A stretch of 36,224 nucleotides of DNA from an uncultured bacterium (GTDB lineage: Bacteria; Patescibacteriota; Saccharimonadia; UBA4664), in NCBI GenBank assembly GCA_963720265.1, contig CAVRET010000002.1:1072069-1108292 (forward strand). Reading direction: 5' to 3'. Below are positions 3,818-15,943 of this stretch, piece after piece. The notes under the pieces were generated by a model, which had not been told where the DNA came from, ran no database searches, and worked only from the letters and a program-made list of their open reading frames with translations. Numbering within the stretch: position 1 is the stretch's first letter; each line of letters begins with the position of its first letter. The position numbers and the translations under genes were made by a program.

Positions 3818-4012
3818 ATGTCGCTCACGAAAGATGATCTGAATCAAATTAGTCAAATTGTAAGGACCGAGGTTTCAGGTTTGAGATCCGATATGGACCG
3901 CATGGAAAGCCGTATAACCACGGCTATCAGCTTGCTGCAGCGCGATACTTATTCCCGCCTCGATGATCATGAGGTCCGTATCACCAAACTTGAACAGGCG
4001 ACTCCTCGTTAG
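3818..4012 (+). CDS. Small coiled-coil hypothetical protein
   Basis: MSLTKDDLNQISQIV...HEVRITKLE heptad pattern; purine-rich AAGGGGA upstream of ATG 3818. Confidence 0.7.
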   Translation: MSLTKDDLNQISQIVRTEVSGLRSDMDRMESRITTAISLLQRDTYSRLDDHEVRITKLEQATPR

Positions 4013-4091
4013 GAGCCGCGTCCAGTATTGAAAAACCGCCTGGCCTTAGGTACAATTTGCCAGTACCTTTTTAGACCGGCCGGCAAACCGT

Positions 4092-4167
4092 GGCGAGATA
4101 GCTCAGTTGGTAGAGCAGTGGCCTGAAGAGCCTCGTGTCCTCGGTTCGAGTCCGAGTCTCGCCACCA
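4092..4167 (+). tRNA. tRNA-Phe(GAA)
   Basis: 76-nt cloverleaf with GGCGAGA/TCTCGCC acceptor stem, loop CT-GAA-GA, TTCGAGT T-loop and CCA end; one U-U mismatch in the anticodon stem. Confidence 0.95.
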
Positions 4168-4191
4168 TAGCATTTATCCGTTCAACCCCAT

Positions 4192-4267
4192 GCGGGTGTA
4201 GCTCAGTTGTTAGAGCGCTTCCTTGCCAAGGAAGAGGTCCAGGGTTAGAGTCCCTGTACCCGCACCA
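4192..4267 (+). tRNA. tRNA-Gly(GCC)
   Basis: GCGGGTG/TACCCGC acceptor stem, CTTCC-TTGCCAA-GGAAG anticodon arm and CCA end; atypical T-loop TTAGAGT. Confidence 0.95.
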
Positions 4268-4477
4268 TTGAACTTATGCTTAAATATTGGACCTCTTCCC
4301 GGCAAGGGGAAGCCAAAAACGCAAAATCAATGATTTTTGCACTAATCTGTAAAAACGCTCAGAAATGAGTGTTTTTACTTTACATAAGCCATTATCAGAA
4401 GTTTGATTCCCCGAAGGGTCCTTCGGGGACGTCTTCAGAACCCTACAGGTAGCGGGCCAACTGGGCCTCCTCCTGGA
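4262..4477 (+). repeat. 216-bp non-coding repeat R1, copy 1 (putative att arm)
   Basis: GCACCATTGAACTTATGCTTAAAT...CTGGGCCTCCTCCTGGA; colinear with 5727-5942 and with the reverse complement of 12093-12308. Confidence 0.95.
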
Positions 4478-4530
4478 TATAGGTGTGGTCTATCGGTTAT
4501 TGTTCGCAAACGATATATAATGAAGGAGTT

Positions 4531-5214
4531 ATGGCTTATATAATCGTAGCCGACGAGATAAAGAAGACATTACCCGGCTATACTCCAGACCAAGCGGAGA
4601 ACTTTCATGAAGCTTCAGCCAAGCTGGCAGATAAAGCTTACTCACAAGCACTGAAAGAGCGGCCTGAGAATGCCGTAATATTGATGAGTGGCGGGGCTGC
4701 TTCAGGTAAATCAGAATATATCTCCGTTTATCTCGCAAACACTGAGGCTATAGTGCTAGATGGCACATTGCCGACATTTGAAGGTGCCAGCATTAAAATA
4801 CGCAATGCCCGTAAAGCTAATAAATCTGTTGAAGTTCATGCGATCCTGCCGTCGAGCCTACCCGTCGCATTCACAGCCTTTCTGAACCGAGACAGGAAGT
4901 TTCCAGTCGAGCATTTTTATCGGACGCACAGCAGCTCACGCAAAACCCTACTAGGGGTAGCTGGAGAATTTGTCGATGTCCCTGTAACAATAGTTATTAG
5001 CAATGGAGAGCCAACTTCGGGAATGACATTTATTAAACAAGAATTTGCAGATCGGCAACAACTCGTTGAATTCGTCAAGACCCAGCAGTATACTGAAGAT
5101 GCAATTAGAGATCTATTATGGCCAGCAGGACACTTCCAAAACCACCAGCATCTAACACCCAAGTTCAGGAGTATATGGCGGCTGTGCGTAAAGGCGCAAA
5201 CAGTGTATTTGTGA
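4531..5214 (+). CDS. Zeta-toxin-like P-loop kinase
   Basis: Walker A GGAASGKS, IVLDGTL and ADEIKKTLPGY motifs; AAGGAG before ATG 4531. Confidence 0.75.
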   Translation: MAYIIVADEIKKTLPGYTPDQAENFHEASAKLADKAYSQALKERPENAVILMSGGAASGKSEYISVYLANTEAIVLDGTLPTFEGASIKIRNARKANKSVEVHAILPSSLPVAFTAFLNRDRKFPVEHFYRTHSSSRKTLLGVAGEFVDVPVTIVISNGEPTSGMTFIKQEFADRQQLVEFVKTQQYTEDAIRDLLWPAGHFQNHQHLTPKFRSIWRLCVKAQTVYL

Positions 5215-5390
5215 TGCAAAAAAATGAAGGCTGGAGCGTGCGACCAGCAATCGAACCCGCCAAGGCAGTCATTTTTGCCTCGAAGGACGAGGCACTTCAA
5301 AAAGCCAAATCGACCGCTGAGTCGAAACATGGTGAGGTCTTCGTATTTGACCAAGCTGGTTCCCTGATTGGCCACGAGTCAGCAACCTAA
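5118..5390 (+). CDS. DUF2188-like small protein
   Basis: Pattern EGWSVR...FASKDEALQKAK...EVFVFDQAGSL. Confidence 0.7.
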   Translation: MASRTLPKPPASNTQVQEYMAAVRKGANSVFVMQKNEGWSVRPAIEPAKAVIFASKDEALQKAKSTAESKHGEVFVFDQAGSLIGHESAT

Positions 5391-5406
5391 CCTCCTGGCG
5401 TACGTA

Positions 5407-5733
5407 TTACGCTAAGGGCCCTACATTCACATTGCATGCCGGCAATCTCAGCTCCACGCCTGCTTTACGCAGTTGTAGAGCCACCGTCTTTCTATCAACC
5501 CCATACTTCGCGGCCAACTCTCGCAACGATCGGCCGGCCGCATAGTCAGCCGCTACATTCTTAATATCCATCTTCCTTCGAGCAGGCGAGAGTCGATGTT
5601 TGGGCTTCGGCTTATTCCATCGTTGATCATATTTAGCTACAACTGGGTCTTGCATCCCGTGTAGGCTCTGGTATGCTCTCTGTACTCTCGCCGCGCCTGA
5701 AAAGTTCTGAAGCTGAAGATGAAGGTGCACCAT
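5407..5733 (-). CDS. Helix-turn-helix protein, copy 1 (cassette-end gene; start codon at the att core)
   Basis: DYAAGRSLRELAAKYGVDRKTVALQLRKAGVELR HTH; paralogous to 6853-7185, with many synonymous differences. Confidence 0.75.
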   Translation of the reverse strand: MVHLHLQLQNFSGAARVQRAYQSLHGMQDPVVAKYDQRWNKPKPKHRLSPARRKMDIKNVAADYAAGRSLRELAAKYGVDRKTVALQLRKAGVELRLPACNVNVGPLA

Positions 5734-5942
5734 TGAACTTATGCTTAAATATTGGGCCTCCTCCTGGCAAGGGGAAGCCAAAAATGCAAAAACAACAAAT
5801 TTGACGTTAATCTGTAGAAACACTCAGAAATGAGTGTTTCTACTTTACATAAGCCATTATTAAAAGTTTGAGTCCCTGTAGGGTCCTTCGGGGACGTCTT
5901 CAGAACTCTACAGGTAGCGGACCAGCTGGGCCTCCTCCTGGA
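5727..5942 (+). repeat. 216-bp repeat R1, copy 2
   Basis: Same length and colinear with copy 1; contains a perfect internal 15-bp direct repeat TGGGCCTCCTCCTGG (5753-5767, 5927-5941). Confidence 0.95.
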
Positions 5943-6012
5943 GGTCAAAATATGCTACTGAGCTGTGCCCCCTAAATTTCCTGAAACACTCATTTTCTGC
6001 TATAATATACTC

Positions 6013-6189
6013 ATGCATTCTACGTCACAAAATCGAGAGAAGAACGTCAGACAAGCTGTAGCCAATGAAAAGCTTGAAGGTTTAGAGGTATCTCGCGAGG
6101 CGCTCAAGATTGCTGACAGTTACGTAGTTGGAAAAGCCTCGGCAAAGACGGTTGCAGACAAAATTCGGGCTCGTTACGGAGCACTGTAG
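6013..6189 (+). CDS. VbhA-family antitoxin of a Fic toxin
   Basis: AVANEKLEG resembles the inhibitory (S/T)xxxE(G/N) motif; lies directly upstream of fic; TATAAT at 6001. Confidence 0.8.
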   Translation: MHSTSQNREKNVRQAVANEKLEGLEVSREALKIADSYVVGKASAKTVADKIRARYGAL

Positions 6190-6785
6190 TTGGCGATCGT
6201 CGATCCATATTTCGACGATACTATTGACGACCTCAGGAACCTATTAGGCGCCAACTCATCAGAAGAACTCAAGAAGCTAGAGCCTCAAGTTGTTTTTGCG
6301 AACGAACTTGAGCTCGATTCGATAGGTATACCACGCACAAATGATCTTACTGAACTGCTATTAATCCATCGTCAGCTTTTCAAGGGCGTCTATGATTGGG
6401 CAGGTAAAATCAGGACTGTTGATATCAAGAAAAATGCCGAGGGGGCCAAATACTTCTTGGTTGTTTCGAAGATTAATGATGCAGCCAACTATGTCTTTGG
6501 TGAACTCACCAAAGAGAAGCACTTACGAGGTTTATCTAAAGAGGAGTTCATCAATCGGTTAGCTTACTTTTACGACCAATTAATTACATCCACCCATTTC
6601 GCGAAGGCAATGGTCGGGCGCAACGAGTACTGTGGAATAGGATTGCTAAAGACTCAGGTTATGAGCTTGATTGGACGCTTGTAGTGGGTAGTGAAAATGA
6701 CGAAGCCTCTCGGGTGGCCTCTGAACAGATGGATTTATCCGGTCTCGTTGCAATGTTTACGAAAATAGTTCGATCTTTAACCTAG
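6190..6785 (+). pseudogene. Fic-family toxin, frameshifted
   Basis: The N-terminal part has IHRQLFKGVYDWAGKIRTVDI. After a 1-bp deletion near 6582 the other frame reads NYIHPFREGNGRAQR...KIVRSLT* (stop 6783-6785). Confidence 0.9.
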
Positions 6786-6852
6786 CGCACAAAAGGCATG
6801 TGACCGTGTATACGAGTTGCTTTGTCAAGGGAGAGAACATGGGCTGAAGCTC

Positions 6853-7185
6853 CTATTGGCCGAGCGCACACACCCACACATTACATCCCGGCAATCTCAG
6901 CTCCACGGCTGCTTTGCGCAGTTGTAGCGCCACTGTCTTTCTATCAACTCCGTATTTTGCAGCCAACTCTCGTAGCGATTTACCGGCCCCATAATCAGCC
7001 GCCAGGTCATCAATATTAATTTTACGACGATAGAGGGAAAGACGGGGTTTGTGTAGCGGATCATCATTCCAGCGTGCAAGATATCTAGCCTCAAATGGGT
7101 CTTGCATCCCATGCAGGCTCTGGTAAGTTCTCTCCACACGCATCTTGTCTGAAAAGTTCTGAAGCCGTAGACATAGGTGCACCAT
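6853..7185 (-). CDS. Helix-turn-helix protein, copy 2
   Basis: MVHLCLRLQNFS...SLRELAAKYGVDRKTVALQLRKA; roughly 70% identical to copy 1 by eye. Confidence 0.75.
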   Translation of the reverse strand: MVHLCLRLQNFSDKMRVERTYQSLHGMQDPFEARYLARWNDDPLHKPRLSLYRRKINIDDLAADYGAGKSLRELAAKYGVDRKTVALQLRKAAVELRLPGCNVWVCALGQ

Positions 7186-7359
7186 TAGGGAATTATCGGA
7201 CGCTTCGGCGTCCTTTTCCGTGCCCGCTAATCTATAGAGAATACTCACTTCAGGGATGTGAACTTTATTCTCCTTAGTCCAAAAAAATCCGCCTGGAAAA
7301 ACGATCTGTTCACACCTAACTCTATGCTCCTGTGATATTTTGAGGAACCTGCTACCCAT
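7186..7359 (-). pseudogene. Probable C-terminal remnant of a large serine recombinase, in frame with HTH copy 2
   Basis: RCEQIVFPGGFFWTKENKVHIPEVSILYRLAGTEKDAEASDNSL-MV resembles, from recall, the C-termini of Patescibacteria recombinase-family proteins that run into tRNA 3' ends; no catalytic domain is present. Confidence 0.6.
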
Positions 7360-7407
7360 GCTGCGTGCACCGTTGTCTCAATAAACATTGGAAGCTACAA
7401 TATAGCT

Positions 7408-7707
7408 ATGAAAGAAGTACAGCCAACAAATCAAGAGCGACTAATTGCCAATATTCTCCGAGCGCATGGCGTGGTTAAGGCTGCCCTATTTGGCTCGTAC
7501 GCACGTGGCGAAGCTGGCCCTCGCAGCGACATTGATCTTCTGGTAGGCTTCCCTGAAGGAACCACTCTATTTGATGTGGTGAACATTCAGGATGACCTAG
7601 AACGGGCACTTGGTTGTAAGGTGGATCTTGTTTCGCAGCGGCATCTGAGCCCGCGACTCGAGAAACGTATCGAGCCTGATCTTAAACCGCTGGCTCTTAA
7701 TCAATGA
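7408..7707 (+). CDS. Minimal nucleotidyltransferase (MNT/MntA-type antitoxin)
   Basis: LFGSYARGE...SDIDLLV...KVDLV motif. Confidence 0.92.
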   Translation: MKEVQPTNQERLIANILRAHGVVKAALFGSYARGEAGPRSDIDLLVGFPEGTTLFDVVNIQDDLERALGCKVDLVSQRHLSPRLEKRIEPDLKPLALNQ

Positions 7708-8027
7708 CAAAACGCGACGATTCGTTTCACCTTGAAGGAATCCGAGAACACGTTCTGGCTATTCGTCAGTACTTGCCGTCCACTAAAGGAGCATATCTAG
7801 CGGACGAGAAAACGCAAGACGCCGTTCTGATGCGCTTATTAGCTTTGGGTGAAGAGGTTGACCGGCTTAGCGACGAATTTAAGGCCGATCATCCAGAGCT
7901 TGATTGGTTCAAGATAGTTGGGCTTAGAAATCGCATCGCGCATGGCTATTTTCAGGTCGACCCCGAGATTGTTTGGGAGACGGTAACAGACGATTCACTT
8001 AACCAGCTATTCAAAGTCACGGAGTGA
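7704..8027 (+). CDS. HEPN/DUF86 (HepT-like) RNase toxin
   Basis: GLRNRIAHGY (Rx4H) motif; ATGA overlap with MNT. Confidence 0.92.
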   Translation: MTKRDDSFHLEGIREHVLAIRQYLPSTKGAYLADEKTQDAVLMRLLALGEEVDRLSDEFKADHPELDWFKIVGLRNRIAHGYFQVDPEIVWETVTDDSLNQLFKVTE

Positions 8028-8242
8028 GCGCTCTAGTCTGAGTGACATTCATAGATCGAACACGGCTGACCAAGTACGTGGAAACACCGCTCTACGAGGG
8101 GGTCTTGTTAGCTGCGAACCACATTACGGACACAATACCGTACGATTGACGGCAACATGCTCTCACAATAACGCACCTGAACGGTCATAATACCGTGTCG
8201 CCACAGATACGAACATAAATAATTCGCTTGCCAAAGGTATTC

Positions 8243-8285
8243 GCCAAGGAAGAGGTCCAGGGTTAGAGTCCCTGTACCCGCACCA
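8243..8285 (+). repeat. Exact 43-bp duplicate of the 3' half of tRNA-Gly (attR-like)
   Basis: GCCAAGGAAGAGGTCCAGGGTTAGAGTCCCTGTACCCGCACCA is identical to 4225-4267. Confidence 0.95.
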
Positions 8286-8301
8286 TTTTAGATTTACAGA
8301 T

Positions 8302-8331
8302 AAGAAGGCGTCTCATTTTGGGCGTCTTTTT
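8302..8331 (+). terminator. Probable intrinsic terminator after the tRNA fragment
   Basis: Imperfect hairpin AGGCGTCTCA-TTT-TGGGCGTCT followed by a T run. Confidence 0.5.
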
Positions 8332-8431
8332 GTGTTTTCCAACTTCCATATCTGGAAGAGAGTTCGACTCCTCTCTGGGTCCTAACTTAGTAGTTCTTGA
8401 CTGCCGGTATAACCAAAGTTATACTTTAGAC

Positions 8432-8668
8432 ATGAAGACAGCAATTTCACTTCCAGATGAAGTATTTGAATCAGCCGAGCAGCTTGCAAAACGGCTAGGA
8501 AAGAGTCGCAGCGAATTGTATGCGCTTGCAATAAACGACTATCTAGATCGAAATAATGAGAGCGTTGTTCAGGAATCGTTGGATCAAGTCTATTCTCAAA
8601 ACAAAAGCCACGTTGACTCAAATCTAGGGACCATGCAAATGAAGTCAATTGCCCGCGAAGAATGGTGA
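8432..8668 (+). CDS. Ribbon-helix-helix antitoxin (ChpI/MazE-like)
   Basis: MKTAISLPDEVFESAEQLAKRLGKSRSELYALAI; overlaps the toxin start. Confidence 0.88.
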   Translation: MKTAISLPDEVFESAEQLAKRLGKSRSELYALAINDYLDRNNESVVQESLDQVYSQNKSHVDSNLGTMQMKSIAREEW

Positions 8669-9003
8669 AACGTGGAGATATATGGTGGGTAGATCTGTCG
8701 GAGCCAAGTGGATCGGAGCCTGGCTATGCGCGGCCAGTTCTGGTAATCCAAGCGAACTCTTTTAATCACAGTAGGATTTCGACTGTGATCGTAGTTGCCT
8801 TAAGTTCGAACATGGCACTCGCCGACGCACCTGGCAATGTTGTGCTCACGTCCAGACAAACCGGTCTATCAAAGGATTCAGTGGCCAACGTATCTCAGAT
8901 CCTTACCTTGGATAAGCAATTTCTTCGCGACAAATCATCCGATCTCAGCTCTAAACTCGTGCGCCAAATCGATCAAGGCCTGCACCTCGTGCTTGATCTG
9001 TAA
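8662..9003 (+). CDS. mazF: PemK/MazF-family endoribonuclease toxin
   Basis: KRGDIWWVDL...GSEPGYARPVLVIQ...DSVANVSQILTLDK. Confidence 0.93.
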   Translation: MVKRGDIWWVDLSEPSGSEPGYARPVLVIQANSFNHSRISTVIVVALSSNMALADAPGNVVLTSRQTGLSKDSVANVSQILTLDKQFLRDKSSDLSSKLVRQIDQGLHLVLDL

Positions 9004-9008
9004 ACACC

Positions 9009-9061
9009 TGATCTCAAAAGCTTGACATAAGCTCATACAGCCACCTTAAAAGGTGTTCGAC
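9009..9061 (+). repeat. 53-bp repeat R2, copy 1
   Basis: Ungapped match to 10424-10476 (38/53 by manual count), ending AAAAGGTGTTCGAC. Confidence 0.7.
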
Positions 9062-9102
9062 TGGAGACCTCTCTCGCGCACCAAGGAATTATTCAGGATG
9101 CG

Positions 9103-9133
9103 AAAGTGTTCCAGATTGGAGCACTTTATTTTT
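9103..9133 (+). terminator. Probable terminator hairpin
   Basis: AAAGTGTTCCA-GAT-TGGAGCACTTT followed by a T run. Confidence 0.55.
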
Positions 9134-9296
9134 GTGCCATACACAACGGCTTTCTCTGGGAACTTATTGCGGGCTCAGGTCAGTTGGTATGGTACAATAC
9201 TTATGCATAAGCATTAACCAAAAATAATGATAAATTCACCATACGAGATTCTTGCGTATGGCGGGTAAACTGAGTTAAGGGAGGAGCGGTATATCG

Positions 9297-9881
9297 ATGT
9301 CAGCGCAGGAGCGATACGACAACTACGCTCAAATGGCCCAGAAAATTATAACTCAGCAGCCTGCTGCAACTCCCGGTGAACAGGCTATATCACTTGCTGC
9401 GCCACAAAACCAGATTAAGGAAAAAAATACGATCCTGGTCGGAGTGCTTTTTGGGGTTGCCGTGGTGGTACTCACGTTCATCAAAGTAATCCCGGGCATA
9501 TTATTCATCCCGCTCATATTCTTTATAGTTATGCTTATTAAGTTTTACAGCATACGCCGCTATCTAGTGGTGGCAACGGACCAGCGTGTATTGTTCATCG
9601 GACTGTCTAAGGTTAACAACAAAAAGATTACTAGTATCGAGTCATTCCCGTACTCATCGGTACGTTTGGGCGACGTACAGCAACGAGGCAAGAGGAAAAT
9701 CGTTACAATTGCGACGTCGGCTGGCCGGTATGTATTTCAATTTTTTCCAACCATACTTGATCTGAACTTAGACCCGGTCCTTGCCTGCATCCAGCAGCAA
9801 CAAGCTAAGACACCAGCTGCCGTCGCGCCGACGGAAGTACCCACAAACCCACAAGCCAATGGAAATCAAAACCAAAACTGA
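9297..9881 (+). CDS. Membrane protein (2 TM plus a PH-like beta domain)
   Basis: GGAGG upstream; hydrophobic hairpin followed by YLVVATDQRVLF. Confidence 0.75.
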   Translation: MSAQERYDNYAQMAQKIITQQPAATPGEQAISLAAPQNQIKEKNTILVGVLFGVAVVVLTFIKVIPGILFIPLIFFIVMLIKFYSIRRYLVVATDQRVLFIGLSKVNNKKITSIESFPYSSVRLGDVQQRGKRKIVTIATSAGRYVFQFFPTILDLNLDPVLACIQQQQAKTPAAVAPTEVPTNPQANGNQNQN

Positions 9882-10398
9882 CAACATACTCGTGGCGACA
9901 GCCAGGCCACGATATATTTTCTTCGGTATTTATGTGCTCGCGTTTACGGGCCTTGCCATACCGTTTATCATCTACGGCCCATTTCTATTTGCCCTTTTCT
10001 TTATACTCTTGGCCATCGGAATGCTGGCATGCATCTGGGGTTATCGGCTGACGATCGACAAGCAGGCAGGCACAATAACGATTAGAAGCTGGGGTGTAGT
10101 GAGGCCATGGCCAAAAGATAGGACGATATTAATAAGCGATGTGTCTCACCTCGATACGGGCCTCGCACCCAGTGCGCCCAGTACTGAATCTCGTATTGTG
10201 TTCTACCTTGCGAACAACAAGTCCATAAAGTTCGGAATTAGCAGGGGGCATTACTATAAGACCTTTAGATGGTTTTTGTCCATAGCCACCGGTCATAGAG
10301 AATCAGGGGGTGAGTATATCATCGGTGAAGTTGCCCAGTTTATTGGGTTTAACAATCGAGACGGCCTCGGCTACACCTGGTTTCGGCCACAACTCTGA
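9859..10398 (+). CDS. Membrane protein (2 TM plus a PH-like domain)
   Basis: Two TM segments then RLTIDKQAGTITIRS; overlaps the upstream gene end. Confidence 0.72.
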   Translation: MEIKTKTDNILVATARPRYIFFGIYVLAFTGLAIPFIIYGPFLFALFFILLAIGMLACIWGYRLTIDKQAGTITIRSWGVVRPWPKDRTILISDVSHLDTGLAPSAPSTESRIVFYLANNKSIKFGISRGHYYKTFRWFLSIATGHRESGGEYIIGEVAQFIGFNNRDGLGYTWFRPQL

Positions 10399-10423
10399 GC
10401 TATCTTTTAATCCTTATCAACTT

Positions 10424-10476
10424 TGACCTCGAAAAGTTAATATAAGGCTATCAAGCCATTGTAAAAGGTATTCGAC
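10424..10476 (+). repeat. 53-bp repeat R2, copy 2
   Basis: Matches 9009-9061 and ends AAAAGGTATTCGAC. Confidence 0.7.
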
Positions 10477-11039
10477 AAGGCTAGTTAAACTCTCAGCAAT
10501 GCGGCAGCGCGGAAGGCCGCCAGTTTGTGCCGGTCCCTATGCCGTTATTGATAATGTACCTTTGGTTACTATATGGATTCGGTCCCCAGGTCGTGAAGAA
10601 GCCCAGATAGTTATTCTGATTCGAGGGGCAAGTCTCGCGGGCGGTTCGCCTTCAATTCTTGGCTGCACCGCTAGGCGTATTAGCTCCCTTAAATCGGGTT
10701 TTCCCGAAACTTTGGGATCGCCAAATCGGAATCTATTGTCACTGAACTCCTTCGATAGGGGGCGAGAATTACTATTACATTGTTTATGTAATAAGTCAAT
10801 CGTCCCTGTGTATAGAAGTACATGAGACTCTCACCCATTTTCAGATTTAGGCGACGTCAAGAAATGATTACCTTAGCGGATTGACGCTTTCTCTATCTGG
10901 GATAATTCCCGGTGCAAGCAGATGGGTAAAAGCTTACCCCTTATCAGGGATGAAATCACTCGCTCGCAAGAGATTTTAGCTATTCCTTTCCGAGACCATC
11001 AGCTCACGAAGTAAGATATGGGAGTTACAATGACCAAGA

Positions 11040-11411
11040 GTGGAGATAACTTATATCGTAATCGATGAGGTAGTTTGTTCCAGATTCGAATGCGGTCGTA
11101 GCTTTGGAGCTTATCCAAGTGGAATGGAGTCGGAGAGTGAAAGGCGCTTATGCCCCGAGTGCGGCGACTATGCTCGTACTGTGCGTAATGGCCCGATTAA
11201 ATTGATTGTAAAGATTGGCAGCGAGAAATCGTTTATATGGTTTAGAGCTTTCGATGAGTTGACCTGCGCGTATGAGCGTCTGTTCACGGTTGGCTACAAT
11301 CTTTTTGAGACTATGCCAGTAACTCCGGGTAAGCCGCGGCGGGATCTCTCTATCTGGCGCAAACCTAGCTTCAACAAAGCTCGCCGCTTTTTGAAGGCGT
11401 TTGTCGAATAG
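11040..11411 (+). CDS. Hypothetical protein with a possible Zn ribbon
   Basis: CSRFECG...CPECG cysteine pairs; GTG start. Confidence 0.5.
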   Translation: MEITYIVIDEVVCSRFECGRSFGAYPSGMESESERRLCPECGDYARTVRNGPIKLIVKIGSEKSFIWFRAFDELTCAYERLFTVGYNLFETMPVTPGKPRRDLSIWRKPSFNKARRFLKAFVE

Positions 11412-11511
11412 CTTGTGTTGATATCTCGTCTCTCTCATCACTGCTTCCATGGGTTGACACACGTGCCATTGAAGTGATTTACATTTTCATTAAAGTAGCG
11501 TATAGTTAGGT

Positions 11512-11603
11512 TGTACTTGTGGGGCTTGCCCTAGAACCGGCCAAGGTTAATGTCCTAAGTCGGAAGCAAGTACACTAAAGTACGTCCCTCTGGGGCGTTT
11601 TTT
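11512..11603 (+). ncRNA. Putative ~90-nt structured small RNA
   Basis: Promoter TTTACA(11478)-17 nt-TATAGT(11501), closing stem TGTACTTG/CAAGTACA and terminator ACGTCCC-TCT-GGGGCGT-TTTTT; no ORF. Confidence 0.55.
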
Positions 11604-11994
11604 AGTATTTCATAATGCTCTGAAAGTAATGCTGGCCTTTATCTCCAACTTTGCGAGTTACGACTCGGACACGCACGCTATCTTTTCCCACACGTGCCTC
11701 CAGGGCATGATAGGTGACTTCTATCTTCTTACCGTCGATTACTTCTTTACGAATTCGTGTCTCGAGGACCTCGTCACAGTTGTGAATGACCGGTGCGATC
11801 AGCGGCACCAATACGAGCCGATTAAAGATAGCGGCCGTCTCACGACGGTGCTGGCCCTTGAATACCAGATGCTTGAAGCCAGGCATATTGAAGTGTACTT
11901 TTGCACCAATAGCTTTTGACTCGATAGGTCGTAAAGCCATGTAAATCACCTTATATTTCGCGATTAGCTCAGCAGTCGATATTCGCTCTGTCAT
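11602..11994 (-). CDS. Putative BECR-fold (LPD3/PBECR-like) RNase
   Basis: Basic 130-aa protein with VHFNMPGFKHL and a C-terminal beta meander VRVRVVTRK...YFQSI; TGGTATAAT 6 nt upstream. Confidence 0.6.
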   Translation of the reverse strand: MTERISTAELIAKYKVIYMALRPIESKAIGAKVHFNMPGFKHLVFKGQHRRETAAIFNRLVLVPLIAPVIHNCDEVLETRIRKEVIDGKKIEVTYHALEARVGKDSVRVRVVTRKVGDKGQHYFQSIMKY

Positions 11995-12092
11995 GCACTT
12001 ATTATACCACTTTGCCAGATGAGACGAGCAACTTGCAGATTCTAGCAAGTCCACCCGTTGGAAGATTACTTATTTTTTAAAGTCACAACCCC

Positions 12093-12308
12093 TCCAGGAG
12101 GAGGCCCAGCTGGCCCGCTACCTGTAGAGTTCTGAAGACGTCCCCGAAGGACCGTATGGGGAATCAAACTTTTAATAGTGGCTTACGTAAAGTAAAAACA
12201 CTCATTTCTGAGCGTTTTTACAGATTAGTGCCAAGATGATTGATTTTGCGTTTTTGGCTTCCCCTTGCCGGGAAGAGGTCCACTATTTAAGCATAGGTTC
12301 AATGGTGC
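12093..12308 (-). repeat. 216-bp repeat R1, copy 3 (inverted)
   Basis: The reverse complement aligns with 4262-4477 over its whole length. Confidence 0.95.
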
Positions 12309-12327
12309 ACCATAGCTCTTATGCATA

Positions 12328-12353
12328 AAAAGAGACTCAGCTGAGTCTCTTTT
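12328..12353. terminator. Perfect 26-bp palindrome (bidirectional terminator or operator)
   Basis: AAAAGAGACTCAGCTGAGTCTCTTTT. Confidence 0.6.
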
Positions 12354-12414
12354 GTTATTGAGTGCGCCGCATACCTATTCGTACGTGCAACCCTGGCAGG
12401 TGTATAATTAAGCC

Positions 12415-12591
12415 ATGAAAGACCATGTATACACAGCAGTAATTGAACTTGACACCGCGACGGGTTTTTATGTAGCCTATGTTCCCGACCTCCCAGGCGC
12501 TCATACTCAGGCCGAAACCCTCGAGGAACTTCAAGAGAACTTGTTGGAAGTCGTTGAGCTTGTTGGGGTAGGAGAAGAATATGAAGAATAA
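12415..12591 (+). CDS. hicB: HicB-family antitoxin (short; absent from the ORF track)
   Basis: Manual translation gives MKDHVYTAVIELDTATGFYVAYVPDLPGAHTQAETLEELQENLLEVVELVGVGEEYEE*. Confidence 0.85.
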   Translation: MKDHVYTAVIELDTATGFYVAYVPDLPGAHTQAETLEELQENLLEVVELVGVGEEYEE

Positions 12592-12826
12592 CAATCTCGA
12601 ACTCGAATACCAGGCCGTCTTCCAGGAAGAGACTGACGGCGGATTCTCTGTCTGGGTGCCCGACCTGCCGGGGTGTGCATCTCAAGGCGAAACCCTTGAG
12701 GAGGCGCTGGAAAACATCAAGGAGGCGATCGAACTCTACCTTGAAGATTCGGATGTCGAATTCGAAAAACAGGATTTCGACTATAGGCGCCAATTCGTAG
12801 TGCCCGTCAAACTGGCCCATGCCTAA
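12581..12826 (+). CDS. hicB: HicB-family antitoxin
   Basis: GGFSVWVPDLPGCASQGETLEEALENIKEAIELYLE. Confidence 0.92.
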   Translation: MKNNNLELEYQAVFQEETDGGFSVWVPDLPGCASQGETLEEALENIKEAIELYLEDSDVEFEKQDFDYRRQFVVPVKLAHA

Positions 12827-13046
12827 ACTTCCGCAGCTTTCAGGAGCAGAGCTGATGAAGGCATTACGACGACTTGGTTTTGAAGTTGTTAGCCAAAAGG
12901 GGAGCCATGTGAAGATGAAACATGCTGATGGTCGAGTCGCAATTGTCCCAAACCACAAGCTCATAAAGCCTGGAACTCTGAAAAAGGGAATACTAAATCC
13001 GCTAGGAATAAGCGTGGAGCAAATAGTGGGAGCCATCAAAAAGTAA
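12819..13046 (+). CDS. hicA: HicA-family mRNA interferase toxin
   Basis: LGFEVVSQKGSHVKMKH...VPNHKLIKPGTL. Confidence 0.92.
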   Translation: MPKLPQLSGAELMKALRRLGFEVVSQKGSHVKMKHADGRVAIVPNHKLIKPGTLKKGILNPLGISVEQIVGAIKK

Positions 13047-13234
13047 CCCCCTCACTGGCGGCGAAATACACGATGTCTCCGTTTACAGGAGCAAGTCCAA
13101 GATCCGCCAATTTCTCGTGCATCAGGTACAAACTTAAGCATAAGCGGTTCCACTTATAATCCAGTAGGCACACCAGGAATAATCAGCGTTCGCAAATACG
13201 GGGCCAAAGGGCTTCGTTTTGATATAATTTGGCC

Positions 13235-13534
13235 ATGCAAGACGCTCCCATATTACCGCAGCAGTTGGACTATACTTTTAAGGCACCAATCGGTGTGAAC
13301 GTCAAAGGCTCTATCTGGTCCTGCGTGGAAATGCCTAATTCGGCAGAGTTTTTTGGGACAAGGAGATCGGTAAGGGGTGATATTGAAATCGATGGGATTG
13401 AATTGCCCAACGTAGGATTCATGGTCACTGGCACTGGGGGACATATGATATCTATAAGCCAAAAGTTACGGCAGCAGTTGAACAAGGACATTGGTGACGA
13501 GGTAACAGTCCTTCTTATACGCCGTGTCAAATGA
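13235..13534 (+). CDS. DUF1905-like protein
   Basis: FFGTRRSVRGDIEIDG...MVTGTGGHMISISQKLRQQLNKDIGDEVTV. Confidence 0.75.
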   Translation: MQDAPILPQQLDYTFKAPIGVNVKGSIWSCVEMPNSAEFFGTRRSVRGDIEIDGIELPNVGFMVTGTGGHMISISQKLRQQLNKDIGDEVTVLLIRRVK

Positions 13535-13555
13535 TAATCTCGTCAAATATAATTC

Positions 13556-13990
13556 ATGGGTAAAATGACTGCTCAAAACGACAATTCAGTCAAAGACTAT
13601 GTTACTTCACTTGATGATGAGCAAACCGTAAAAGATTGCAGGGTGCTCATTGAAATGATGCACCGCATCAGCGGGCATGAGCCAAAGCTGTGGAATGTGG
13701 GCACGATCGGCTTTGATACCTACCATTACAAGTACGACAGCGGGCGCGAAGGCGATGCCGCAACCATTAGTTTTTATCCAAGAAAAGGCAAGATAACAAT
13801 ATATTTAATGGACGGCACGGTCCGTTACTCCGAATTACTGGCTCGCTTAGGCAAACATACTACGAGCCGGGTTTGCTTATACATCAAGCGGCTCAGTGAT
13901 ATAGAGCCGCCAATACTTGAACAAATCGTGCAGCAATCTTATGCGTACGTAAAGTCCCAAGATGGGCACATGCACCGAGCATTAGAGTAA
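13556..13990 (+). CDS. DUF1801-like protein
   Basis: PKLWNVGTIGFDTYHYKYDSGREGD...LGKHTTSRVCLYIKRL. Confidence 0.85.
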   Translation: MGKMTAQNDNSVKDYVTSLDDEQTVKDCRVLIEMMHRISGHEPKLWNVGTIGFDTYHYKYDSGREGDAATISFYPRKGKITIYLMDGTVRYSELLARLGKHTTSRVCLYIKRLSDIEPPILEQIVQQSYAYVKSQDGHMHRALE

Positions 13991-14022
13991 ACGGCTGAGG
14001 CCTTTTGTCTTATAGTATGGGC

Positions 14023-14574
14023 ATGAATCTGATACTAATATACGGCCCGCCGGCGTCCGGAAAGCTCACTGTCGCCAAAAAGTTGGCGACCATAACCGGT
14101 TACACGCTGCTAGATAATCATCAAGTAACAGACTATCTGCCCCAACTATTTCCGAGTGGGCTGCCGGACCTTGAAGTCGCGGGGGCAAAGCTAGGAAGAA
14201 AGATAAGACTGCTCATATTCGAAGCCGCAGCAGCAAACAATGTAAGTTTAATCACAACCTTTGCCCCATTAGTTGATGGCGCCCATGATTTCATTCGAAG
14301 CATTAAATCGAGCGTAGAGGATGCGGGCGGTAAGCTCTACTTGGTACAACTCATTCCGAACCAGCAGGCGCTGGATAGTAGAGTGGTTGGCGAGTCTAGA
14401 GAAGGAGGAAAGGCGCAGACGGTTCAACGACTACGCGAATTAGCCGACCGTTATCCGGTGATGTTTGAAAGATTTCCAGATTTAGAGCATTTAGTTATCA
14501 ATAACTCGAGTATGCAGCCAAATGAAGTAGCTCGGCTAATTTACGAACATTACAGCTTAGCCAAGTCAGCGTAA
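14023..14574 (+). CDS. P-loop kinase (shikimate/NMP-kinase-like)
   Basis: LILIYGPPASGKLTVAK...LLDNH. Confidence 0.82.
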   Translation: MNLILIYGPPASGKLTVAKKLATITGYTLLDNHQVTDYLPQLFPSGLPDLEVAGAKLGRKIRLLIFEAAAANNVSLITTFAPLVDGAHDFIRSIKSSVEDAGGKLYLVQLIPNQQALDSRVVGESREGGKAQTVQRLRELADRYPVMFERFPDLEHLVINNSSMQPNEVARLIYEHYSLAKSA

Positions 14575-14608
14575 CGCCCACCGGCCGGTCCACTGGTATC
14601 ATATGGAT

Positions 14609-15553
14609 ATGCAAATTGGGCTGAAACAGCTAATTAACCCGGAATTACAATCGCTTGTAGATGAAAGCAAGCAATTTTATGAAGCCAAGAATGCCGCTGC
14701 CGAAGACAAAAAGCAGCCTGATCTAACCACGCATGACGGCCTGCTAAAAGCCCGAAATTCCCGTAAACTGGCCGTCGTATTGACGGACCGCCAAGTTACC
14801 CAAAGTATTGCTGAGGCAGATGGCAGAAAAGTTCCTGTACGAATTATCCAGCCCAAGAAATCCAAGCCGCGGGGCGTGTACCTGAATATTTCTGGTGGTG
14901 GTTTCTACCTTGATGAAGCTACCAGAAACGATATCCAAAATGCCCATCTTGCGGACGCTCTCGGGGTAGCAGTCGTGAGCGTTAACTATCGACTAGCGCC
15001 GGAAAACCCCTGGCCCGCGGCACCTGATGACTGTGCGACCGCAGCCTTTTGGTTGGTGGGGCAATCAAAAACGCTGTTTGGAACGTCACGCCTCCTCATC
15101 GGTGGCGCGTCGGCCGGTGCCAACTTAGCCATGACTACATTGCTTAGGCTGCGCGCCAACAAGCTTATAACGCCGTTTATTGGCGCCGTTTTACAATTTG
15201 GGGCCTACGATTTGAGCGGCCAAACCCCGGGTGGCCGGCTCTATGCTGACGAATATTTTATTCAGGCCTACGCCAGTCAGGTTGCCGACAAGGCCCAACC
15301 TGGCTTATCGCCTCTGTATGGCGACTTGAAAGGCTTGCCGCCGGCGTTAATGGTGGTAGGTACGGCAGATATTTTAATGGAAGATAATTTTGCCATGGCC
15401 GCCCGGCTTGCGGCCGCCGGTTGCGAAGTGGATTTACGGGTTTACCCAGAGGCCGGACATGGTTTTACATTTCATCCCACAAAAATGGCCGCGGCTGCAT
15501 CGGAAGACATGAAAGATTGGCTCAAACAACGCATCGAAAACTCTGTCGAGTAG
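14609..15553 (+). CDS. Alpha/beta hydrolase (HSL-family esterase)
   Basis: SGGGF oxyanion motif, YRLAPE, GASAG nucleophile, catalytic D and HGF. Confidence 0.9.
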   Translation: MQIGLKQLINPELQSLVDESKQFYEAKNAAAEDKKQPDLTTHDGLLKARNSRKLAVVLTDRQVTQSIAEADGRKVPVRIIQPKKSKPRGVYLNISGGGFYLDEATRNDIQNAHLADALGVAVVSVNYRLAPENPWPAAPDDCATAAFWLVGQSKTLFGTSRLLIGGASAGANLAMTTLLRLRANKLITPFIGAVLQFGAYDLSGQTPGGRLYADEYFIQAYASQVADKAQPGLSPLYGDLKGLPPALMVVGTADILMEDNFAMAARLAAAGCEVDLRVYPEAGHGFTFHPTKMAAAASEDMKDWLKQRIENSVE

Positions 15554-15616: not shown

Positions 15617-15943
15617 TTGAAAGTAGGCAGAGTTACGTTCGAGATCGTGGTGACAGATGAGAGCGCCGAGTGGGTTTACGAACACATCCTTGACACGCCC
15701 AGGAGGGCGCCCGGAGTTACGCTCGTTGCCGAGCCGGAGGTTGAGCGCATTCCCAGCGACCCGGTCAGCTTTCGGATCAAGGGCACCTTCGAGCTTCCGT
15801 TCATTGAACGTGAGATAAACGCCACGAAGAGCCACATCGAAACTGCGCCCACGCGGCGCGCAGGCATCACCATCATTAGCTGCGAGGCCGCCATAGTCGA
15901 TATCTTCGAAGAAGGGCAAAATGACGAGCACCATGAGCCCTAG
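15617..15943 (+). CDS. Hypothetical protein
   Basis: GGGGAG before a TTG start; followed by a strong hairpin. Confidence 0.5.
   Translation: MKVGRVTFEIVVTDESAEWVYEHILDTPRRAPGVTLVAEPEVERIPSDPVSFRIKGTFELPFIEREINATKSHIETAPTRRAGITIISCEAAIVDIFEEGQNDEHHEP

Follow-up and report, generated by a model that had tools for sequence, protein, structure and literature searches.

Does an integrase at this locus change its own C terminus by recombination? The question is raised by a 168-amino-acid (aa) open reading frame (ORF) on the minus strand of a 36,224-nucleotide (nt) stretch of DNA from an uncultured Saccharimonadia bacterium (UBA4664; assembly GCA_963720265.1, contig CAVRET010000002.1, positions 1,072,069 to 1,108,292). 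We call this whole stretch the window and give positions within it; the prefix C2 marks positions on the contig itself. The ORF (6853-7359) reads straight through an 8-nt core, GCACCATT, which is present at 4262, 5727, 7179 and 8280, and it ends in a helix-turn-helix (HTH). The original prediction, made from the letters alone, held that recombination at this core toggles an integrase tail between the HTH extension and seven residues read antisense from a tRNA gene. We find that nothing toggles in the window and that the ORF is a pseudogene joint. With a probability of roughly 80%, positions 4262-8287 are a tandem of integrase-less elements accreted at the CCA end of tRNA-Gly(GCC) through large serine recombinases (LSRs), and the ORF is a dead joint in this array. 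What stands of the original interpretation is the identity of the integrase remnant, the short ends and the long fused forms; what falls is the toggling at this locus, where no catalytic or recombinase domain is found.

An open frame across a recombination core

On the minus strand, the core reads ATG GTG C (7185-7179). It joins the HTH arm in frame with the recombinase-like sequence upstream, as had been claimed, and the ORF is open across it. The translation in the ORF listing runs MGSRFLKISQEHRVRCEQIVFPGGFFWTKENKVHIPEVSILYRLAGTEKDAEASDNSL-MV-HLCLRLQNFS and on to the HTH, with AGTEKDAEASDNSL-MV-HLCLRLQNFS around the core. The seven-residue joint that had been read at tRNA-Gly is present as well, in the stop-to-stop frame 4245-4358 (minus strand). 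This frame ends LSISSMVRVQGL before its stop, and its DNA, ATG GTG CGG GTA CAG GGA CTC TAA, encodes MVRVQGL. The reported ORF is made up as follows.

6853..7359, minus strand: reported 168-aa ORF, a chimeric in-frame joint of an LSR tail and HTH gene 2 (ORF listing)
7186..7359, minus strand: 58-codon remnant, the 3' end of an LSR gene and P arm of a third element, presumably dead (phmmer matches to LSR C-termini)
7179..7186, no strand: core copy 2, joint of HTH gene 2 and LSR tail, the recombination site within the reported ORF
6853..7185, minus strand: HTH gene 2, 110 aa, MVHLCLRLQNFS..., right end (P' arm) of cassette 2 and C-terminal two-thirds of the reported ORF

The ATG at 7359 aligns to an internal Met of full-length relatives (e.g., MGSRFLE in P0075), and no Shine-Dalgarno-like sequence is visible before it by eye. 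A promoter-like site (TTGGCT, 16 nt, TATATT; 9/12) at 7399-7426 on the minus strand faces into the ORF from the 48-nt gap that separates its start from an MNT gene. Just past the core in the tRNA sense, a terminator-like hairpin, GGACGCTTCGGCGTCC with a T-run (7198-7213, plus strand), lies antisense to the conserved KDAEAS codons of the integrase tail and could end the tRNA transcript after integration.

Homologs of the upstream part

Judged by its homologs, the upstream part (58 aa) is the tail end of an LSR of ~515 aa, from the C terminus of that protein. A HMMER scan of 1.84 billion representative sequences with the 168-aa ORF as the query gave 435 matches at E <= 0.001, and the best 150 were examined. 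Among these, 35 align via query residues 1-62, nearly all at their own C terminus. The full-length ones (P0150, 521 aa; P0094, 518 aa; P0101, 512 aa) match over their last ~60 residues and carry PF00239, the N-terminal resolvase catalytic domain with the serine nucleophile. Identity to these three is 45-48% and rises to 58% in shorter fragments (P0024), and whole-library E values go down to 1.5e-12. The recombinase identity of 7186-7359, which had been proposed from family C-termini, is upheld by these matches. In the genome itself, the remnant (G000:C2:1079245-1079427) corresponds to residues 455-517 of P0150 (E 8.5e-11). It comprises only the last ~60 residues, beyond PF07508 and PF13408 (zinc ribbon with coiled coil); neither PF00239 nor PF07508 has a match anywhere in the window (C2:1072069-1108292).

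We then looked at what follows the (L/M)V of the core in these relatives. Among the 35 matches listed, 16 continue with exactly RVxxL and a stop (RVRGL, RVQGL, RVRRL, etc.), two with RV in a frame that goes on, and one with the antisense of another tRNA. A helical extension of 27-44 aa follows in five and a 134-aa HTH extension in one (P0018); the other ten have at most four residues (five proteins) or something else (five proteins). In genomes of the same class, P0150 found 30 loci of this clade, and in 20 of them the LSR ORF ends within an antisense tRNA gene: Gly(GCC) in 10, Lys in five, Ala in two, Glu in two and Arg in one. One further locus (L050) has a probable Gly, and no tRNA was called at the LSR end in the remaining nine. 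Tails at the tRNA-Gly(GCC) loci read RVRGL, RVQGL, RVKGL and similar. The short ends at a tRNA that the original prediction expected of homologs are thus found both in the proteins and at the loci.

The far side of the element differs from that in the window. Tblastn with four HTH queries found no HTH in any of 13 extended loci of this clade. In at least 10 of the 13, the distal core is followed by an in-frame, conserved 32-aa ORF, for example MV-QQVGKSLHLIRDEIARWRRILEKPYQEYLLSR and a stop, with the motif ..EIARWRxILxVPYQEYL; in P0060, this peptide is fused to an integrase fragment.

Natural integrases with the HTH tail

The second predicted kind of homolog, a long integrase fused to the HTH, exists in nature: P0018, P0193, P0194, the locus L150 and a copy at C2:865981-867441 are of this form. 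A search for longer proteins that contain the HTH of cassette 1 (HTH1) found two of them. P0194 (657 aa) has a complete N terminus, MKRAVIYLRVST, and the domains PF00239, PF07508 and PF13408. It crosses the core as ...GSDDNTLV-HLAG... into an HTH with 75% identity to HTH1 over 51% of the HTH1 length. P0193 (579 aa), which reads ...GSDDDIMV-HLCLRLQNFSDKMRV..., is 76% identical over 99% of HTH1, and its first 17 residues past the core are those of the window's HTH2. Its predicted start falls within the catalytic domain, so that the first ~70 residues are missing relative to P0194. The window's HTH belongs with the GS....(L/M)V clade of P0193 and P0194. Since the remnant's clade usually goes with the 32-aa peptide and the HTH with this other clade, the window joint is one between unlike elements.

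P0194 found 29 loci of this HTH-associated clade in the class, with one locus from an unpublished genome left out. The ORF ends in an antisense tRNA in 21 of them. At L150, an open frame of 749 aa joins a complete integrase, across AAACTTTTGGTGGGA (TTGGTG), to a double HTH. Three other loci reach the contig end, L139 and L142 show neither a called tRNA nor a recognizable tRNA-like tail at their ends, L141 has a tRNA-like tail (...WGFEPQ) with no tRNA called, and at L157 a spurious ORF was picked. Relatives thus include integrase ORFs that cross their own core and end in differing C-termini.

The copy at C2:865981-867441 is an N-truncated LSR fused to an HTH, ...GSSKSAMV-VLTIALQNIS..., reading straight through the core. 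Its relatives are G+C-rich integrases that end MV-GATGFEPVTPRL and a stop, MV-ELRGFEPLTP... and similar. Among 41 related proteins, only the genome's own copy and Nocardia P0192, which is without PF00239, carry an HTH. For both P0152 and P0192, which are LSR-HTH fusions, the catalytic domain is missing from the precomputed Pfam lists.

Outside the class, P0194 matched six distant loci in genome contigs. Two of these LSR ORFs run into an antisense tRNA, tRNA-Leu in a Clostridiales metagenome-assembled genome (MAG) and tRNA-Glu in an Actinomycetota MAG; the remaining four, whose frame broke off early when read from the start of the match, were not counted. The overlap in these two MAGs shows that the design is not confined to one phylum. 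Metagenome contigs gave 17 loci, the best at 43% identity, and P0194's own contig is not among them.

The HTH module

The module from the core onward is, or recently was, a real coding sequence under purifying selection. Between HTH1 and HTH2, the ratio of nonsynonymous to synonymous substitution rates (dN/dS) is 0.27 overall, 0.34 in the first 60 codons past the core and 0.17 in the HTH. The genome holds 11 copies of the module; 10 of them start at an in-frame (L/M)V core and the eleventh is 5'-truncated, and in 10 of the 11 the 50-60 codons between core and HTH are open and in phase. By eye, no Shine-Dalgarno motif lies 5-10 nt from the core start in HTH1, HTH2 or the copy at 187 kb, which leans slightly toward translation as a fusion.

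The HTH is a putative one by Pfam, with scores short of the gathering cut-off throughout: 19.8 and 18.3 bits for HTH_58 (cut-off 23.8) and 19.6 for HTH_28 (cut-off 25). The structure model of HTH1 (predicted local distance difference test [pLDDT] 72.8) has a long N-terminal helix (residues 2-24) and then a three-helix HTH, with helices 57-65, 70-77 and 81-90 at pLDDT 80-90. Foldseek against the PDB gave no match at E <= 0.001; the best rows, weak at E 0.16-0.4, are HTH domains of Mos1, DeoR, RcsB and Tn3 resolvase. The HTH part of the ORF also matches proteins with 5-10 tandem HTH copies (P0007, P0017, P0019 and others) of up to 836 aa and in one case 2823 aa, and P0007 scores on dozens of HTH Pfam families. 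The sole locus found by HTH alignment in viral contigs (L113) is a phage multi-HTH/endonuclease-like gene with no adjoining LSR and was discarded.

The same design elsewhere in the genome

The genome (1.68 Mb, two contigs) encodes seven full-length LSR genes and the one N-truncated copy. In five of the seven, the ORF continues into a tRNA gene in antisense (Arg-CCT, Pro-CGG, Val-TAC, Leu-GAG and His-GTG), with tails such as ...GSSEEASLV-PREGIEPPT and ...GSEHKLLV-GNEGLEPPT. The tRNA-Arg element (C2:178787-187279) displays both ends: its integrase ends ...ASLV-PREG in the tRNA and, ~8 kb away, an HTH ORF starts TAA TTT TTG GTG (FLV-RLICQ...). The two share the same codon phase; therefore, excision would fuse them. 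A stop precedes the core at this HTH (C2:187004-187279), with the TAA two codons upstream, and at L084, with a stop three codons upstream.

Serine-integrase attachment (att) sites are imperfect inverted repeats of ~40-50 bp around a central crossover, and attP and attB have few bases in common. The arms in this genome have a strikingly regular geometry. In 5/5 LSR genes of the clade with GS....LV tails, (G/A)GTTC starts 21 nt before the GTG, and in 9/10 HTH arms TCAGA(A/G) starts 20 nt past it, the tenth having TCAGGA. In the tRNA arms, TCGAA of the T-arm/T-loop starts at +16 in two of three, and the third has TTGAA. The -21 and +20 motifs flank the core as an inverted repeat, and the motif on the tRNA side sits 4 nt nearer to it; we take this offset to resemble the attP/attB half-site offset of serine integrases. 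The conserved GS and QN residues of the proteins may be conserved as DNA. At the window joint, the P arm has five of the eight motif positions by our own count, and the four cores have 8 nt in common.

Two further regions show the design in other settings. At C2:849630-856258 (L012), four HTH copies stand in a row. The residues with which they begin past the core, GNEA/GNEG, look like a reading of antisense tRNA-Val(TAC). No tRNA is called by ARAGORN across the surrounding C2:845001-875000; the tRNA-Val and the integrase that match these copies lie ~45 kb away, at 897811-899520. At C2:860001-868000 (L013), the N-truncated LSR-HTH fusion lies beside a duplicated gene for a secreted GDSL-like lipase that is split by a transposase-like ORF. 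The closest integrase relatives of this LSR (74-80% identity) are G+C-rich and actinobacterial in style, which hints at transfer from a host-like donor.

A tandem array at tRNA-Gly

The reported ORF is one joint of a longer array. In the tRNA orientation, the order is tRNA; A-arm, zeta-like gene and DUF2188, HTH1; A-arm, VbhA and Fic, HTH2; LSR tail, MNT and HepT, a 45-nt copy of the tRNA; then another arm with a ribbon-helix-helix (RHH) gene and MazF. The remaining features are as follows.

4092-4167: tRNA-Phe (ARAGORN; Rfam)
4192..4267, plus strand: tRNA-Gly(GCC), the attachment target, with the first core in its CCA end (ARAGORN; Rfam RF00005, 69.5 bits)
4262..4269, no strand: core copy 0, joint of tRNA and A-arm, minus-strand reading ...SISS-MV-RVQGL and a stop
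4262..4477, plus strand: A-arm 1, non-coding left end of cassette 1, 216 nt (repeat family D1, inverted repeats I1 and I2)
4483..5390, plus strand: cargo of cassette 1, a zeta-toxin-like ORF at 4483-5214 (PF06414, 1.2e-07) and a DUF2188 ORF at 5118-5390 (PF09954, 1.3e-05)
5407..5733, minus strand: HTH gene 1, 108 aa, MVHLHLQLQNFS..., right end (P' arm) of cassette 1, start at the core
5727..5734, no strand: core copy 1, joint of HTH1 and A-arm 2
5727..5942, plus strand: A-arm 2, 89% identical to A-arm 1 (repeat family D1; blastn)
5965..6684, plus strand: cargo of cassette 2, a VbhA-like antitoxin at 5965-6189 (PF18495, 3.5e-09) and a Fic-domain ORF at 6190-6684 (PF02661, 4e-04, below cut-off)
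7408..8027, plus strand: toxin-antitoxin pair of MNT nucleotidyltransferase (7408-7707; PF01909, 7.7e-16) and HepT (7704-8027; PF01934, 5.2e-22)
8243..8287, plus strand: exact 45-nt copy of the tRNA-Gly 3' part, ending in core copy 3 at 8280-8287 (repeat family D4, 100%)
8288..9003, plus strand: next cassette, with the "X" arm, an RHH antitoxin (PF01402) and a MazF/PemK toxin (PF02452, 2.3e-27)

In the window, the GCACCAT 7-mer within the core is not significantly overrepresented (10 occurrences, 5.8 +/- 2.5 expected; 8/100 shuffles reach 10), and it is because of their flanking repeats, not of this count, that we take the four core sites as real. The 216-nt A-arm repeats right of cores 0 and 1 (4262-4477 and 5727-5942), where two hairpins and an extended -10-like box, TGCTTAAAT, follow directly past the core in A-arm 1. 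An HTH gene lies left of cores 1 and 2, 76-78% identical at the DNA level, and the same 45 nt of tRNA-Gly lie left of cores 0 and 3. Of the four joints, three have only 8 nt in common. G+C content is 46-48% from ~4000 to 15000 and 52-62% outside. At the gathering threshold, Rfam finds only four tRNAs in the whole window and no RNA family in the A-arms.

We considered whether the sequence from 8288 onward could be the native flank of tRNA-Gly and rejected this: the "X" arm is a repeated element end that recurs (82-83%) beside tRNA-Leu(CAG) in this genome, at C2:956208-956303, and in genomes G085 and G121. On the minus strand, 8243-8376 reads ...LLICKSKMV-RVQGL and a stop, and P0002 has the near-identical LLICKTKMV before an HTH. 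The cassettes in 4483-9003 each carry a toxin-antitoxin-type pair (zeta-like/DUF2188, VbhA/Fic, MNT/HepT and RHH/MazF); all four pairs have the orientation of the tRNA and are preceded by either a TGCTTAAAT-type box or a promoter-like site between genes.

A third A-arm copy, 93.5% identical, occupies 12093-12308 in inverted orientation. At the palindrome ATGGTGCACCAT (12302-12313), the core of this copy faces another core head-to-head, and beyond it come ~25 nt like the A-arm start, a strong hairpin and, by eye, a HicB/HicA-like pair at 12581-13046. This arrangement suggests either that a segment was inverted or that two cassettes went in with opposing orientations. A further GCACCAT, at 15928, is within an ordinary coding region and was taken as chance.

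A model for the joint

Read on the strand of the integrase, every core gives xTG GTG, which is antisense to the ...CACCA of the tRNA. In this element family, the attP core lies within the 3' end of the integrase gene. The left arm (P) encodes the last integrase residues and the right arm (P') a conserved in-frame extension module; integrated copies carry tails of a few junk codons from antisense tRNA, and both fused and unfused forms occur. In the model that we favor, integration would swap the extension for such codons (here MV-RVQGL and a stop) and relocate the extension gene to the distal end, where ATG/TTG and GTG of the core could serve as starts. An integrated copy would then make a tail-less integrase and perhaps a free module from the core ATG/TTG-GTG, and an excised circle, or an integrase beside the right end of another element, would make integrase plus module. 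In tandem elements, the tail of one integrase would read into the extension of its neighbor; given the shared phase rule, any such joint would be an open frame. Of the integrase of what would be the oldest element, only the first 58 codons of ORF 6853-7359 remain, the MNT/HepT pair now occupying the place of the LSR gene body. The last 110 codons are the HTH extension module of cassette 2, abutting this presumably older, gutted element, and the ORF as a whole would be without function today.

Several observations weigh against this account. An LSR crossover should leave less than the 45 nt of tRNA that are copied at 8243-8287. The remnant's LSR clade usually partners the 32-aa peptide, not the HTH, and the use of a site of an unlike element by a second LSR lacks an explanation in the model. 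The A-arms are without the GGTTCTGA motif at -21, so LSR binding there is predicted at most. Among the 29 loci of the HTH-associated clade, a chromosomal long form occurs in one (L150), whose surroundings are unlike a tandem array. Finally, we saw neither an excision product or circle nor an empty site or split read; among public sequencing runs, a single soil metagenome contained 8% of the sampled words.

Other accounts of the locus fare less well. A working integrase whose tail is toggled here via the window cores, the HTH making the long form and 7 aa the short one, would fit the frame open across the core, the occurrence of both tail kinds in full-length relatives and the promoter-like site at 7426-7399 (minus strand) just upstream of the ATG. 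With only 58 integrase codons left, an ATG that is an internal Met of the relatives and lacks a Shine-Dalgarno-like sequence, and whole-genome searches that place no PF00239 or PF07508 match in the window, it is refuted as an enzyme at this locus and hardly credible in any form. An integron-like or tyrosine-integrase cassette platform, with the cores and the 45-nt copy as tyrosine scars and the LSR tail incidental, would explain the exact tRNA duplication, which is typical of tyrosine-integrase islands, and the single-operon cassettes with a promoter-like box past each core. But the one PF00589 (tyrosine recombinase) match in the genome, at C2:194920-195447, lies ~880 kb from this array and far from any other, no IntI stands beside the array, three of the four joints have just the 8 nt in common, and the arms match LSR tails and LSR-associated P' modules; we consider such a platform highly unlikely.

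The HTH could also be a free-standing cassette regulator (a repressor, an excisionase-like factor or a toxin-antitoxin regulator) whose start lies in the att core by chance, the frame match being a by-product of the CCA end reading xTG GTG and the fusions being functionless. Gene callers do start P0011 and P0014 at MV, and true right-end joints have a stop just before the core (C2:187004-187279, L084) with the core offering ATG/TTG and GTG. A dN/dS of 0.27 is a protein-coding constraint that needs no fusion, and some fusions may be debris: P0152 and P0192 are without the catalytic domain, and P0193 lacks ~70 N-terminal residues. However, no stop separates LSR from HTH in the complete integrases P0194 and L150, the 50-60 codons from core to HTH stay open and in phase in 10 of the 11 genomic copies, and no Shine-Dalgarno motif serves the core start in the three copies inspected by eye. 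In other clades, unrelated P' modules (the 32-aa peptide, a WNQ-type helix) occur in the same phase, and this would be difficult to account for if the extension were not translated from the integrase. A free-standing regulator is therefore unlikely on balance, though it keeps a real share of our expectation.

Beyond the array of accreted elements, we tentatively propose a role for the tail swap, which we hold to be rather doubtful. In a large branch of tRNA-targeting serine integrases, a C-terminal module (HTH or 32-aa helix) encoded across attP and removed by integration would let the recombination state decide which form the enzyme takes. It might act as a built-in directionality or copy-number switch without a separate recombination directionality factor (RDF), and the detached HTH, restarted from the core ATG/GTG, might serve as partner or repressor while the element is integrated.

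Discussion

Their one-way action makes serine integrases prized in genome engineering, and what sets this direction is under active study. A family whose integration rewrites the enzyme's own C terminus, with conserved modules on the far side of the site and both integrase forms found in nature, would be a ready-made test case for direction control. These tRNA sites are also the main places in this organism where toxin-antitoxin and defense cassettes gather. For ORF 6853-7359, the proper annotation is that of a pseudogene joint rather than a gene.

Tandem pile-up of integrase-less cargo cassettes at one fixed site is known from composite islands of the staphylococcal cassette chromosome (SCC) and from cis-mobilizable elements. 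The tycheposons of Prochlorococcus are alike in being tRNA-targeted, piled up in tandem and partly made of integrase-less cargo cassettes. They differ in that 910/937 elements use tyrosine recombinases, and the available part of their description contains no integrase ORF crossing the att site (10.1101/2020.12.28.424599). The SSV-type "suicidal" integrases of archaeal viruses and plasmids also have the recombination site in the integrase ORF, and their gene is split by integration; as far as the accessible text of the source goes, these are tyrosine recombinases that the split inactivates, whereas here only a C-terminal add-on would be exchanged and the catalytic and DNA-binding core stays whole (PMC7253208). 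The relatives studied here carry PF00239, and the sole PF00589 match in the genome is elsewhere.

In mycobacteriophage BPs, attP reportedly lies within a reading frame, and integration is said to alter the C terminus of the protein and thereby its activity; the gene is reportedly that of the repressor, not of the integrase, and the recombinase a tyrosine integrase. The integration-dependent immunity of BPs and its relatives is, from the portion of the source available, the tyrosine-recombinase analogue of the design (PMC4557955). The nearest functional analogue is the engineered phiC31 integrase-RDF fusion, in which an extra C-terminal module on a serine integrase sets direction (Olorunniji et al., 2017, PMC5737554). 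That fusion is artificial; the natural HTH and peptide modules are putative directionality factors.

The closest precedent in print is DsiB. In the ssrA-specific genomic islands of Dehalococcoides, dsiB overlaps attL, and McMurdie et al. (2011, PMC3146451) remarked that it is perhaps fully functional only on the circle or beside a neighbor with "the requisite 3' gene fragment." As in the present family, the integrase gene overlaps the att site and the islands form tandem arrays. Within the accessible text of that paper, the target is transfer-messenger RNA (tmRNA), not tRNA, the tails are called divergent with no conserved extension module, no natural long form is given and the elements are larger, with a six-gene integration module (PMC3146451). 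We set DsiB beside the clades described here for its design. DsiB aside, we found no tRNA-targeting serine integrase with the site in its own ORF in the literature (including PMC12455944), whose supplements may hold more. The trait of the family has therefore been partly in print since 2011, for DsiB at tmRNA and with no module identified; what is added here is the tRNA-Gly clade, the exact prediction of the tail, the diversity of the modules and the natural long forms.

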